A DNA stretch of 52,176 bases, filler included, from Perkinsus olseni (GCA_013115125.1; 2 parts of 2 records of this genome joined end to end with filler, not necessarily neighbours in it); one strand, 5' to 3'. Shown: positions 3,700 through 26,055, counted from the first letter of the whole stretch. Translations and numbers: made by a program. Notes: generated by a model not told the origin, from the letters alone.

Positions 3700-6146
3700 G
3701 TGTTCTGTTCCCTTAATAAAGTCTGCACACTCACCAGACAGCTGAGGTGCCAGGAGGCCTCCCCTTGAGCGTCCAACTCAGCAATCTGCGTTCTGATCCG
3801 CTCCGCCACGCTATCAACTGATCCTCGCCTGATCAATAACGACAAATAAAATGCAAGCTGGGCTATCTCACATACCACTCCATCGCGAAATCATCTGCTC
3901 CTTCATGGCCGCTGACGCTATTACGTACTTGCCGAGGCGGCCGACCACCCACCGCTTTTGGAGACATCGACATCGGGACTGAGAACAACAGCAATCCCGA
4001 AGGCCCCCTCCAAGAAAACCTACCCACGCCGCCCTCGGACAACCTCCGACTCACAGCCGGGGTCCTTCTAACCTCATCACAGCTGCTTCGTCGGGCTCGC
4101 TTTCGCCCGCCCGCCTTCGGGTACTCGAGCGTTGTGGTCAACACCCTTGTGGGGTACGAGGGCCGGGAGAGGAGGCTGAGGTTACGGCGTCCCCGATGTT
4201 TACACAAAGCATGCATTACTCAGTCTTTGACACTGTAGTAGTCGCTGACGACATCCGGTCTCGACCCAGGATACGAGTTGTGGGAGTTATGGTATGGTCG
4301 AGCGAAACTGACAACGTATCGATTCCTTGGGATGCATATCGAGCGAGGAACTTCTTGTCAATCAAAACAGTCCTGCTCGTCCCGTCGCCCATATGCTCTC
4401 AAGAGGTCTATTCGTAATGCCATCGTCCAGTTTATGAACTGGGAGCGGAGGCAGTCCTGTTCGACGCGCTCTTCATGATGTGAAGAAACTCCACCGGCAC
4501 TCGAGCTCCAGTACTTCCATCACATACTACAGCAATGGATCCGGCACCCCCACCCCCAGCCCCAGTACCACCTCGCAGCCGCTTCGCGTTATCTACTGGG
4601 GAGGTTATTGCGTGATGGTTCGTGGAGGAGGACGGCGGCGGCACCAAGAGCAGGCCCGAGGTCCCTTTGGACTCGGCCGCCTTGCTGTTATGGCAAAAGT
4701 CGATTCGGGCGAAAATCACCTGCCGGGAGTACTGCTGGAGGGGCGATCTAACGGAGGCGCACTTCGGCCAGCCAATCGATCAACAGCTTCCTCGCCGCCC
4801 TCACTTCTTGACGGCTGCCGTACTCGGGCCTGGTATAGTTCAGCTGGTCACAATACTGTCTTACCATTCAAGAGGCCGCCGGATCTATCCCCAGGGCCTC
4901 CATTCTCGCCATTACTTGAGCTCATCCAGTTCAATGCAGTCCAACCTAACCTGCTCCTTGCAAGTGACATCATTCAAGAACAACTCCTTCTTCCGCATCG
5001 AGTCCCGCAGACCCCCACTGCCCTGACACCACCACACGAGTTATGTTTCTTCTCGGGTGAAATCCCGCGGCGTAACCCTCTAGCTGCGCTTGGACTCGCC
5101 CTATGATGAGCCTTCCCCAACATCACAACAGCCACCACGACTTTCAGCGCTCCCGACTGATCGCCCATCCCCAGCAGCTCATCATGCTCTATCAAGCCGA
5201 TGTCTACGTGTACAGCCGCCCTATAAATCCCACGGTTTTCGTCAATTTTCATACCAAATTTCGGCCAGAACTTTCTCCAAGAGGACCAAGAAAATTCGCG
5301 ACAGCCGGCATGCTTTCGAGATGCCCGCCACCCTGAAATCTGCATCACGGAAGACCGGTGGAAGGGTGATCTATCAGCTGCCACAAAGCGTTACAAATCC
5401 CTTCTAACAATCAATTATCAGAGTGCGAGAAAGGATGAAGCTGCTTAGGCCACGCACCGCAAACCGACCTACCCCGCTGTCCAGGGACTCCTTACTCTCC
5501 GCCAGAAGTTCGTTGAGTGTTGGTACGATTGAATTTCTTATAATAGATAAAGTTGACAATATCTGATAAAACGCCATCCGTGGGATTCGAACCCGGAACC
5601 TACCCTACTTGAGGGTGTTTCGAGAAACTCCTGCATTTTGCCTCCACTGCATCGATCTGCGTTGTTGTTATCGGCGATGATAAATCAGCGCTCGGTGTAT
5701 CTGTCGATACAGTCGCCGAGATTTTCGGGTTTTTCCCGATTTTTCCGGAAATTTCTGCAAATTTGCCAATCGCACACTCTGATGGTTCCTCTAGCCAACG
5801 AGCCACGACAACGCCCGACCTTTGATGGTGATGGACGACGGCCAGCTCCTCCGTACACCCGTCGTGTCACCACCCACTGGCCGGCCGTATCCGAGGGCCG
5901 CCGACGGGAGTGTCCTCTTCCGCAAAGTTCGCACACAGTGTGTCGGAACCTATGGCAGACTGCTATGAGAGAGGTCCCCGGTTCGAATCCCAGCAGGACC
6001 TTTTCTTCCGAGTACACAGACTCTTCTGTATCGTCAATTCTCCTCTTCCGTGAGGAGCTCCTCTCGCTATTCCCTCCCGGAGTAACATCAGACGAAGACG
6101 AGGGGCGGTGGAGCAGGCCGCTCAAACGACGGAATAAAGAGAACAT
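3700..6146 (-). CDS. Multi-exon hypothetical protein; boundaries approximate
   Basis: ATG at 6146 (MFSLFRRLSGLLH...). Plausible GT-AG introns 5960-5999 and 5563-5608; the latter joins HPQ|ILSTLSIIRN in frame. No recognisable domain; 3' end uncertain. Confidence 0.35.
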
Positions 6147-6424
6147 CCTGTTCAACGCAGCAGCTGATGAATTCTCTTAGTGAACTCTATTGCTGTTTGG
6201 AGTGGATCATTACCTCACTCATATCCAGCAAGCTTCGACCTAAGATCCACTATCCTATGCTAGGCAAGAACGTCGTCCCTCCCAGAACGCAACACAAGCT
6301 CTTCGTCACATGCCCTGCGAATCTTCCGGCTGCGCATGACGACAGACGAAAAGATACGCCACGAGGAGAATGGTCCATAAAAGGTCGAATATAAAAACCC
6401 AATATGAATAGCAGGCACTGCTGT

Positions 6425-23129: not shown

Positions 23130-26055
23130 ATGGCCGATGTTCACTTCTTAGGTAATGTCTTCGATGTACTAGGAAGTTGGTGGACTTTTTTTGGGTTCTT
23201 GTTGTTTTGGTCTTCCCTTTCACTAACCTGACCTGACTAGAATCCTTCAATCGATTCGGTCTTGGAGGCCGAGTCTTCGGTGGTCGCTGCCGTCAATCCC
23301 AATGAGTATTTCCTGCGCCAACCCACAGCGGCATATACCCTTTCGATATCGCCATCAGCCGATTACACCGTGCTGGGTCTGATGATGATTCTTACAGACA
23401 CATACCGCTTACTCAGTCCGACTAAGTGATAGACTACTGTAATTTTCGTATTTCGCTGATCCTATGTTCCTGCGATAAGAAGCAACGCTAAATTCAGCCC
23501 TCCCGATAGAACACAATCAGAGTTAATGTCGTAGAAAGGCAAGCAGCATGTAGGTCAATAGTGTCGCTTGCTCCGACACAACTCGTTATTGTACAAAACT
23601 CCCTTATGGCCACCCCGCCCATCTCTGACTCATCACTACGACGTATCACTGTGCGAGTACATCTCAACGACGAACCACTATCTTCGGGCTCACAAGAGCT
23701 CCTGCTCATTACCACCGTCCTCCACCAGTGGCGAGATCTTGTCGCGAACAAGATCCGAGGGAGGGTTCGGGCTTGGCGTGTGGAACGCTGCCTCCTCCGT
23801 ACGGTGATCGGAAGACACCTGCAAGTATGGCAGAGGCAAATGGTGGCTACCAGATGGTATCGATGTCGCCTGAATGCGAGACTGAAGGACACGCCGAGTC
23901 GAGCGGATCTCTCTGAGGCCGGCGCGCTGACTTCGGTCTACCTCGCAGCCTGGCGGAGAAGAACTTTGGATGTCGTGGAGGCGACCAGACGATTGTCCAG
24001 AGTGAGCGAGGCCAGGGTATAGGGGGAATTTCTACAAGTCGTTTACCTCGTTCAAAGCGACTATCCCCCATCAGGATCACATCCTAGGAGTGACTAGGTC
24101 GTCTGTGTTTCCCGCCTGGCGTCACTTCGTACAGCACCACCGCTTGCTTCGAGGACGCGCAGAGGCGCTGCATCGTCGCAAAGGGCAGCGTCATGTTGTA
24201 GCATACTTCCGCGACTGGTAGGATAGGACAGACGATCCGTAGCACGAGAAGATCCCTTCTCAGGGCTCTAGAGACCTTCAATATCAGCCCACGCATCATC
24301 CGTGCTATGAGGCGAGCGGTCAGAGGAACCTTACTCAGTTGGAAGGATGTGACTCGCCATCTGAGTGCTTGTCGGACAGAGAGTTTATCACAGTGGAAGA
24401 GACGTTGTGAAGAAGCTATTCGAGTGTGGCTTCGAAAGGCCTCGGGACGCGTAGGGGACCGAGCTCAGCGGCAAATTCTCCCCCTCCCTTCCCAGGTATC
24501 GTTCATCCCGTCGCTCATCTGGGCCGATCCATCTCTCCACCTTCGAGTATTCTTTCGGTTGCTGTCGACAATAGCGGTCCGTCGACGACAATTGAGGCAG
24601 TCCTTCTCCCGCGCTGCAGCTTTGAGGAAACGGCATTGCCAAGTCATCAGCGTAGCCAGCACCGTGATGGCTTGGAGGGCTCGTCAACATCACCGAGCAC
24701 ACGTGTCATGGAGATGTCTGAGCAACTGGGCCGAGAGTGCGACGCGAGTAGCAAATCGGCGAGCGCAGGCGAGAACGCTGTTCCGGAGGGTGATGAACAG
24801 AAGGATCGCGTCATGGCGAGGACTGGCGACCCGACGCAGACAGGCCAGGTTGGTCCGGTCTTCCCTCGGGGCATCAGCGTGGTGCCAGATGGAAGCTCAT
24901 GCGTATTGTCACACCGGACCTCAGCGATTACAACACTAACCCCGGTGATGGCATCGTAAGGGCGAATCTACATCGCTGGCGAGCTCTCACTGCTCGCCGG
25001 AAAGAGACGCGAAATTCACGAGAATTAGTAGGTCTCTGATGCTGAATTCAATCCTGATGGCCGAAGTGCCTCAGGTCCTCTTCCTCCGCAACGGACGGTA
25101 TTCTGCTAAGAAAGATACAGCAGCACACTTCAATGCTTGGGTCGACGTCATCTCTCAGCGGCGGCGGTCCGCTGCCGTCCAGCAGTTGTACAACCGAATG
25201 ATGTTGCAACAGCCCTTCACACGCTGGATGGGATGGTCCCAGTCGGTCGTAGCTGCTGATCTAAGTTTGGTTATCCCGAGGCGAAGGGCTGCTGTTGAGA
25301 GCATCTTTGCGGAGTGGAGAAAACTGAGGAAGGCGACGGCCTTCGGTCGGAAAGGTAGGCGACACAGCTGCAGTGTTCAACACCGGGTTTTGCAACACCG
25401 CAGGAGACTATTTCGTAGGAAACCTGACGTGAGGTCTCTAGTAAGGACTCTTCACGTACCTTCGTGAAAACCTTGGCGCGGGTAAAGGAAAGTCGGCGGA
25501 AATATCGATGAATCCTCTAACTTTGGTCGACGGCGCATGGTCCATACTGTGGGCAGCAGTGCGTTACATGCCCAGCACTTCATCCTGTTCAGTGGACTCC
25601 CTGAACAGCCTCATTGACGCCGGTGTCCGGGCTAAGGCGCTCAGGTGGTGGAGGTCTTTCACACTACTGGACGAGCTTGCCGGACGAAGAGTTTCGTGTG
25701 CACAAGATAGGGCCTTCCAGTAGATATTTAGACCCCGGTTCGAATCCCATGACGACCTTCTCAGAGTTTGGCGAAAGCATCAGGCTGTTAGACGATGGAG
25801 GTCTGCCCAGCTTCACAGCGCTGCGGTCGGCTGCCTCCGAGTTTGGCGGCATCGGTACAAACGACGTGCCGCTCGTCGCCGTGCAGATCAGAGGTTGGAG
25901 AGATCTCATTGGACCCGCCTGAGACGGTTTGTCATTCAAGGATGGTCATCGGTTGTCGAATACAAGAAGGGCGTAGCAGAAAAGGTCCACCGATCGGGAC
26001 ACGGACGCTTTCGAGTTTTGGTCTGCTCAGGGAAGGCTCTACAGGGCTGGCAGCG
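23130..26055 (+). CDS. Sfi1-repeat-like (centrin-binding) basic helical protein, multi-exon, runs into the assembly gap
   Basis: Successive ORFs with periodic Trp in Arg-rich helices (LHQWRD, LQVWQR, LAAWRR, LLSWKD, FNAWVD, FAEWRK, LRWWRS, FQVWRK). Intron 25720-25764 is in frame. Family call is from pattern only. Confidence 0.55.
23438..23484 (+). repeat. 5' fragment of the TRIM LTR family
   Basis: TGTAAT...TCGCTGATCCTATGTT..GATAAGAAGC matches the LTR start. Confidence 0.6.

Follow-up and report, generated by a model that had tools for sequence, protein, structure and literature searches.

Segments resembling the 3′ part of tRNA genes within and as short spliceosomal introns of Perkinsus olseni

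How new spliceosomal introns originate has long been an unanswered question, for which transposon families have so far provided the clear cases. Short interspersed elements (SINEs) have a tRNA-like head with A and B boxes, followed by a LINE-related or A-rich tail, and the ETC/COC sites of yeasts are TFIIIC-bound, carry a B box only, lie mostly between genes and lack tRNA geometry. A captured fragment reportedly also gave rise to an intron of mitochondrial-DNA origin. In Daphnia, new introns have been attributed to the capture of foreign DNA at breaks (PMC4202315). The introners of Amoebophrya are described as bearing inverted repeats of 8-20 nt, direct repeats of 3-5 nt and mostly non-canonical splice sites (PMC7789003). 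The Perkinsus lineage adjoins the dinoflagellates, in which introners are rampant. Perkinsus introns are reported to range from 39 to 1622 bp, most of them below 100 bp (PMC3101222), and Perkinsus marinus is reported to possess hundreds of tRNA genes along with Dada DNA transposons of 4.7-11 kb that insert at the tRNA A box (TAGCTC) (PMC3706591). Here we describe a 52,176-nt stretch of DNA from the shellfish parasite Perkinsus olseni (GCA_013115125.1, filler included; hereafter the window) that contains segments of about 40 nt laid out like the 3′ part of a tRNA gene, which we call modules, many of which make up essentially the whole of a short intron.

The B-box motif GGTTCGANNCC matches the two strands of the window exactly 13 times, against 0.48 expected; among the 100 dinucleotide shuffles that served as background, the largest count was 2 and none (0/100) reached 13. 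One match falls in an intact tRNA-Pro gene and one in the open reading frame (ORF) of a retroelement (33743), leaving 11 orphan matches with a perfect 11-nt B box, all of them within 5.5-25.8 kb. An A-box-like motif shows no excess in the window (9 vs 8.4 expected), and ARAGORN, Rfam and an A-box scan detected no part of a tRNA 5′ half, be it the acceptor 5′ strand, the D arm with the A box or the 5′ strand of the anticodon stem. ARAGORN and Rfam together report two whole tRNAs in the window, for Gln and Pro, which provide a reference:

7126-7197, + strand: intact tRNA-Gln (ARAGORN; Rfam 65.9 bits)
44444-44516, - strand: intact tRNA-Pro (ARAGORN; Rfam 58.3 bits)

Because there are only these two whole tRNAs and the A-box-like motif is not enriched, we conclude that the orphan segments comprise tRNA 3′ parts only.

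An ungapped alignment of 14 copies reproduces the spacing of a tRNA, with an AGGTC-like variable loop followed by 5 nt, TTCGAnn, a further 5 nt, 7 nt and the discriminator, after which most copies continue into a T-rich stretch. In the 39-nt core the columns are on average 68% identical; the flanking sequences are unrelated. A covariance model (R1) was built from these 14 copies and run unfiltered over the whole window; its training rows are 13 of the loci named in an initial annotation of this DNA plus module O, so that the scores of these copies arise by construction. Apart from the training copies, R1 matched both real tRNAs, at 21 bits each, and added four copies (P, R, S and Q), bringing the orphan copies in the window to 18, each extending from variable loop to discriminator and none with a 5′ half:

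4868-4906, + strand: module-like copy S (R1 E 0.0081); candidate intron 4856-4915 lacks ORF continuity
5563-5608, - strand: intron A, 46 nt, filled by a sense module (R1 38.9 bits, training row); GT..AG, open frame of 50 aa on each side
5960-5999, - strand: intron B, 40 nt, antisense module (R1 38.2 bits, training row); open frame of 50 aa upstream and 30 aa downstream
7683-7745, - strand: intron C, 63 nt, antisense module with an Asp-like anticodon-loop remnant (R1 36.3 bits, training row); open frame of 49/50 aa
7830-7882, - strand: intron D, 53 nt, sense module (R1 35.1 bits, training row); open frame of 49/50 aa
9434-9472, - strand: module E, intron status unsupported (R1 36.3 bits, training row); 9340-9476 lacks ORF continuity
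14808-14846, - strand: module F, between two transcription units and not supported as intronic (R1 39.9 bits, training row)
15671-15755, + strand: intron Q of the kinase gene, 85 nt, degenerate antisense module at 15666-15704 (R1 E 0.018); RNA joint 15670>15756 in three runs
16169-16211, + strand: intron G of the kinase gene, 43 nt, filled by an antisense module (R1 33.4 bits, training row); RNA joint 16167>16211 in X7, X8 and X10
16271-16321, + strand: intron H of the kinase gene, 51 nt, sense module with the 5′ splice site within AG/GTC (R1 32.7 bits, training row); RNA joint 16268>16320 in three runs
16416-16464, + strand: intron I of the kinase gene, 49 nt, sense module (R1 42.4 bits, training row); removal joins ...LHTSNI to VHRDIKP
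16526-16629, + strand: intron J of the kinase gene, 104 nt, antisense module (R1 38.3 bits, training row); removed in the public protein model
16722-16772, + strand: intron K of the kinase gene, 51 nt, antisense module (R1 36.2 bits, training row); removed in the public model
17965-19750, + strand: intron M of the kinase gene, 1786 nt, module 17973-18011 at its 5′ end (R1 E 2.6e-5, training row); RNA contig pieces
19910-19966, + strand: intron P of the kinase gene, 57 nt, decayed sense module at 19926-19964 (R1 E 8.2e-4); RNA joint 19907>19965 in X7 and X8
25720-25764, + strand: intron N, 45 nt, sense module (R1 27.4 bits, training row); open frame of 49/50 aa
39021-39059, + strand: module O, outside any assigned intron (R1 27.3 bits, training row); a T-run follows at tRNA spacing
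40398-40446, + strand: intron R of a Nop56/58-type gene, 49 nt, decayed sense module, R1 hit 40395-40433 (R1 E 0.0049); downstream exon matches the Pfam Nop domain (3.3e-30)

The acceptor end of the copies is tRNA-like in further respects. The acceptor segment is readable in 17 copies, that of M being decayed, and 14 of these have C at position 72; the discriminator is a purine in 16/18 copies, and at least three T's stand immediately 3′ of it in 9/18. CCA follows the discriminator in a single copy, where its letters are exon sequence. Five of the copies detected by R1 (P, Q, R, S and M) have decayed B boxes.

Splicing was assessed with contigs of three RNA-like runs (X7, X8 and X10) and of a DNA run (X1) over 5540-25539; this part of the analysis covered 15 of 75 RNA joints and drew on stretches with RNA cover, and introns A, C, D, I, J, K and N rest on reading frames or gene models. 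GT..AG joints that are absent from the DNA run occur for introns G, H and Q in all three RNA runs and for intron P in two of the three. Intron M is bracketed by RNA contig pieces that stop at 17964/17966 and an X8 contig that resumes at 19751, and a contig piece of run X10 begins at 5998, the edge of intron B. When all predicted introns are removed from region 15237-21125, one frame is free of stops and the other frames contain 20-37; its translation matches the public P. olseni protein P0123 without a difference over 589 consecutive residues, an identity from which it follows that the public gene model removes the same introns, including all eight that contain modules. The product shows a kinase domain and then EF-hand-like repeats by eye, one exon matches Pfam Pkinase, and the public protein that it matches is assigned to kinase and EF-hand families in Pfam; we read the gene, by eye, as a calcium-dependent protein kinase (CDPK). 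A public partial P. olseni protein, P0122 (14670-16168), joins the upstream MIP18-like gene and the CDPK into one product, with the GT at 14733 as donor; this fusion is probably the reason for the odd product name given to the CDPK entries.

GT-AG introns of at least five genes contain 14 of the 18 orphan copies; the other four are in non-coding DNA elsewhere, and exons contain none. The intronic modules comprise eight in sense and six in antisense orientation, and eight of them reside in the CDPK gene. Modules are found in 8/21 introns of the two genes covered by RNA; of the ten introns of 110 nt or less in these genes, seven contain a module, two a palindromic motif described below and one neither. 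Module F lies about 70 nt past the stop codon of the upstream gene (14738-14740), and RNA contigs end at 14759-14778. A general excess of TCGA/ATCGA in introns was rejected, TCGA being less frequent in module-free introns (5.2 per kb) than in exons (9.5) or over the window as a whole (6.3).

The initial annotation had described tRNA 3′-part look-alikes without 5′ halves, with tRNA spacing and a frequent T-run, in both orientations relative to the host gene, and all of this agrees with the motif counts, the alignment and the orientations given above. Of its 14 loci, 13 carry a module according to R1 (12 at E ≤1.8e-7 and 17973-18011 at 2.6e-5), and a weak site at about 16935, which lies in intron 16919-17173 of the public protein model, yields no match at E ≤10. 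As for the splicing of these introns, 16169-16211 and 16271-16321 have RNA joints, 17965-19750 is supported by contig pieces and 5960-5999 by a piece at its edge; 5563-5608, 7683-7745, 7830-7882 and 25720-25764 have open frames, and 16416-16464, 16526-16629 and 16722-16772 must be taken out to obtain the stop-free CDPK frame and are removed in the public model. The proposed introns 9340-9476 and 14733-14859 have no clear ORF continuity. To that set three module introns can be added: 15671-15755 and 19910-19966, which RNA joints support, and 40398-40446, located in the Nop56/58-type gene.

The boundaries of the modules coincide with those of the introns. In ten introns of 40-57 nt, the module constitutes essentially the entire intron. 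In sense copies, the 5′ GT is found at the anticodon end (within a few nt in I, N and M, and nearby in A and D), immediately before the variable loop (R) or within the AG/GTC of that loop (H), and the intron ends at the first AG behind the T-rich trailer, 6-23 nt past the discriminator. In antisense copies, the 5′ GT is the complement of the acceptor end or the trailer, and the pyrimidine tract is the complement of the purine-rich variable region; the CAG with which antisense copies B, C and G end corresponds to CTG at loop positions 32-34 on the opposite strand. The tRNA likeness thus starts in the anticodon loop and stops shortly after the terminator, limits that are also the ends of the intron.

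This anatomy bears on whether the introns are older than their contents, the modules having landed in pre-existing introns without any gain. The longer module introns (C, 63 nt; Q, 85; J, 104; M, 1786) could accommodate an older intron, copies E, F, O and S show that modules are not confined to introns, and introns J and K predate a species-level split, as discussed below. However, in the ten introns of 40-57 nt the module takes up the whole length, with the splice sites at its edges; with Perkinsus introns reported down to 39 bp (PMC3101222), there would be no room in them beside an insert of about 40 nt. At the site of intron R in the Nop56/58-type gene, moreover, 80/80 related environmental loci lack the intron at 40398-40446 and the spliced peptide aligns with them unbroken, about 35 of the 80 being from contigs longer than 5 kb and the rest possibly transcripts. 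These loci are distant relatives, the best having 81% protein identity and no close Perkinsus relative being among the metagenome loci, so the position of intron R is not widely shared and the comparison says nothing about when the intron arose. On balance, we consider the landing of modules in older introns quite improbable.

We lean slightly toward the reading that the insertion of tRNA-gene 3′ parts created these introns. Fragments of about 40 nt, running from the anticodon loop to the discriminator and including the T-run of the RNA polymerase III (Pol III) terminator, would have been inserted in either orientation into coding exons of an ancestor of several Perkinsus lineages, and would have survived because they were spliceable at once, each making a tiny GT-AG intron. 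The module would itself have supplied the splice signals: in sense orientation, a GT at the anticodon end or in AG/GTC, with the T-run plus AG acting as the 3′ site; in antisense orientation, a GT from the complement of the acceptor end or trailer, a CAG from the complement of CTG and a pyrimidine tract from the variable region. The presence of both orientations points to insertion at the level of DNA. Since T-runs are frequent and CCA occurs only once, the source would be tRNA genes or primary Pol III transcripts copied into DNA, and not mature tRNA halves; the variable 5′ ends and the mosaic make-up of the copies, described below, are compatible with copying from RNA. The proposal of the initial annotation that introns were gained by capture of tRNA halves therefore retains its core, in that the module is the whole intron in ten cases with intron ends at module edges and the Nop site is empty in all 80 loci, and loses the mature half as its source. 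Dada transposons were considered as the origin of the halves and rejected, their target being the A box and not the anticodon loop.

Several observations weigh against insertion as the origin of the introns. No target-site duplication is found, the boundary repeats being 0-4 nt long and the same in module-free introns, and no inverted ends are seen at module introns. The T-stem pairs no better than with shuffled partners over the 14 copies (62.9% vs 63.8% of cells), with pair 51:63 unpaired in 10/14. A test of four modules against 5′-truncated Rfam models gave a significant tRNA-clan match for E and F only: E matches the truncated tRNA model at positions 32-71 with 21 bits (E 0.0074), short of the gathering score of 29 bits; F matches the 3′ end of tmRNA, a member of the tRNA clan, with 17.6 bits; and C and I have no match to the truncated tRNA model. 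The six short introns of the 3-ketoacyl-CoA synthase (KCS) gene contain no module, which is thus not a general component of short introns. Introns J and K recur in a diverged relative and would be old events whose direct insertion traces may have been lost, and the similarity of the copies in their 5′ block is uncorrelated with that in their 3′ block (18 copies; Mantel r = -0.15, p = 0.88), which the simple copying of whole tRNA halves does not predict.

T-stem pairing at the level of shuffles, together with RNA folding in which 0/10 module introns surpass their shuffles (z -0.89 to +1.44), shows that the copies do not function as parts of tRNAs, and their tRNA structure has decayed. This finding bears directly on another explanation, in which the modules belong to functional tRNA genes of the split or circularly permuted kind, like those of the red alga Cyanidioschyzon merolae. 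The occurrence of 3′ halves with T-runs is the sole point in its favor, and it is countered by the lack of any 5′ half in the ARAGORN, Rfam and A-box searches, by stems that are not maintained and by the departure of the segments from the mRNA as GT-AG introns. Such an arrangement is extremely improbable, and we discard both chance and split tRNA genes as explanations of the modules.

Whether the modules descend from one family or from many sources is a question on which the sequences give mixed evidence. The variable acceptor strands, together with the conserved C72 and the purine discriminator, give the appearance of many different tRNAs, and in the layout of all 18 copies no common sequence extends beyond the T-run. 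Six copies, by contrast, have in common a non-pairing C at T-stem position 51, and sub-blocks are shared in a mosaic fashion, one 5′ block by E, I, M and G, another by A and D, and a 3′ block that includes the 3′ splice site by A and I. The initial annotation had held that the copies are not one SINE family; the diversity of acceptor strands supports this statement, whereas the shared C51 and the uncorrelated blocks complicate it. One or a few self-propagating families of mobile elements, introners of the MITE/SINE type with a tRNA-related core, could account for such shared features that are not universal in tRNAs, and introner families are described in the dinoflagellates, the sister group (PMC7789003). 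Pointing the same way, several contigs of the DNA run match the window up to 16443, inside module I and right after its B box, and then diverge. (Contigs of this run also diverge at 11292, 11310 and 14147-14148, at borders of multi-copy sequence.) A mobile family is nonetheless hard to reconcile with the absence of terminal inverted repeats, clear target duplications, an A box or a common tail, with a core in which column identity is only 68% over 39 nt amid unrelated flanks, and with 5′ and 3′ blocks that reassort. We regard it as unlikely.

The comparison with a second Perkinsus sequence concerns introns J and K. A 155-aa ORF, P0121, has 82% identity to a query in which the P. olseni introns J and K are read through, and to judge from this match it is itself a read-through of both introns in a diverged Perkinsus relative or paralogue. 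For intron K, P0121 retains the 5′ GTA, the 3′ CTTCAG and a 21-nt module core that is identical at 7/7 pseudo-codons, and the flanks require an indel and no fewer than 10 changes in 21 nt; for intron J, core letters and the 3′ end are kept. Because both introns recur with their cores kept in a diverged relative, introns J and K and their modules predate the split, and the introns are not very recent. The comparison of cores between species covers one intron (K) and part of another (J), by way of translated letters, and within these bounds the lesser change of the core fits either a B box under constraint or conversion from tRNA genes. No read-through ORFs from other species were found across introns H and I.

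The conserved cores raise the possibility that the modules are B-box-only TFIIIC sites, putatively like ETC/COC sites, maintained by selection and merely tolerated by introns and spacers, perhaps in a role acquired later. This would explain why 11 orphan copies keep a perfect 11-nt B box when stem pairing equals that of shuffles and no module intron of ten folds better than chance, and it is in keeping with the cores of introns K and J in P0121. Yet conservation within the window is biased, the copies having been found by their B box, and the decayed B boxes of P, Q, R, S and M argue against a general requirement; the evidence between species amounts to one intron and part of another seen through translation, and binding alone leaves unexplained why the edges of the modules are splice sites. 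We judge a role of the modules as TFIIIC-type sites to be somewhat unlikely.

Insertion and TFIIIC binding can also be combined, in a doubtful reading in which tRNA genes would be the standing master copies of an intron-making process and the resulting introns would contain selected intragenic TFIIIC sites. DNA copies would be made of the 3′ parts of Pol III primary transcripts, U tails included, and an occasional template switch at the conserved T loop would explain both the mosaic halves and the mismatched stems. The copies would enter exons in either orientation, each born as an intron by virtue of splice signals on both strands, and the leftover B boxes would form dense, putative intragenic TFIIIC sites kept by selection.

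Two other short motifs recur in the window. The palindromic motif AAATCGATC-nnn-TGATCGATTT is present in four copies (7561-7578, 13978-13995, 14923-14940 and 17339-17356) and is the core of the tiny introns 13950-13999, which has an RNA joint, and 17324-17370, seen in RNA contig pieces. Both of these introns fold strongly (z -1.9 and -3.1), and AAATCGATC-nnn-TGATCGATTT is thus a second short motif that forms whole introns. The motif ATCTTAGGTYGA occurs in ten copies (6235, 9186, 9246, 9335, 9919 and 10970 on the - strand; 12001, 12134, 15065 and 15210 on the + strand), situated on the strand of the neighboring gene in first introns or 5′ regions, with those at 12001 and 12134 falling within a repeat of about 45 nt. 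An interpretation of ATCTTAGGTYGA as relic spliced leaders was dropped, the likeness to the P. marinus leader (PMC9399869) being weak by eye.

The window has a GC content of about 0.50 and includes an artificial join of two contigs at 26056-26155, where two runs of N flank the linker TTAATTAATTAA. A 172-aa ORF at 45103-45621 is 100% identical to P. olseni KCS and 87-88% identical to the 3-ketoacyl-CoA synthases of P. chesapeaki and P. marinus; by this protein match we take the window to be nuclear DNA of P. olseni. The summed depth of DNA-run contigs over tRNA-Gln (7126-7197) is very high, with a bin value of 2792 against about 70-100 elsewhere, and the flanks differ, from which we conclude that this is a many-copy gene. 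In the retroelement at 33002-37897, an ORF for reverse transcriptase (Pfam RVT_1, 3.8e-7) precedes one that resembles a tyrosine recombinase by eye and has no Pfam match, an arrangement that suggests a DIRS-like element. A near-perfect purine/pyrimidine hairpin at 19603-19651 is the source of a false Rfam match to mir-4716, and a (GAT)n microsatellite of about 60 nt occupies 6421-6480.

No prior description of tRNA-like Perkinsus introns or of introns derived from tRNA halves was found in the main texts that the literature searches listed, among which the P. olseni genome paper did not figure; the main text of PMC12130899 makes no mention of Perkinsus, tRNA or SINE. The building block proposed here differs from the transposon families in being a fragment of a housekeeping gene with splice signals on both strands and no transposase ends. 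If the pattern holds true genome-wide, it would offer a testable route from tRNA genes to introns and a possible link of Pol III factor sites with the structure of Pol II genes.

Among described systems, the modules most resemble the introners of Micromonas, Aureococcus, fungi and dinoflagellates, including Amoebophrya, in that short similar sequences constitute whole introns of unrelated genes, can be spliced in both orientations and have splice sites at the ends of the element; unlike introners, the P. olseni element is a tRNA-gene 3′ part of about 40 nt that has no terminal repeats, and its copies are old and diverged (68% identity). With tRNA-derived SINEs the modules have in common a tRNA-related sequence with a B box that is dispersed in genes, and they differ in being a 3′ part only, in ending with a terminator T-run and in showing no A-box excess. 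They resemble ETC/COC sites in having a B box without an A box outside tRNA genes, and depart from them in possessing tRNA geometry and in lying mostly within introns. The Dada transposons belong to the same genus and are likewise mobile DNA tied to tRNA genes, but their reported insertion near the tRNA 5′ end cannot yield fragments that start at the anticodon loop (PMC3706591). Finally, as in the break-capture introns reported for Daphnia (PMC4202315), a short captured fragment would have become an intron in either orientation; what distinguishes P. olseni is that the same type of fragment is reused, with splice signals on both of its strands.

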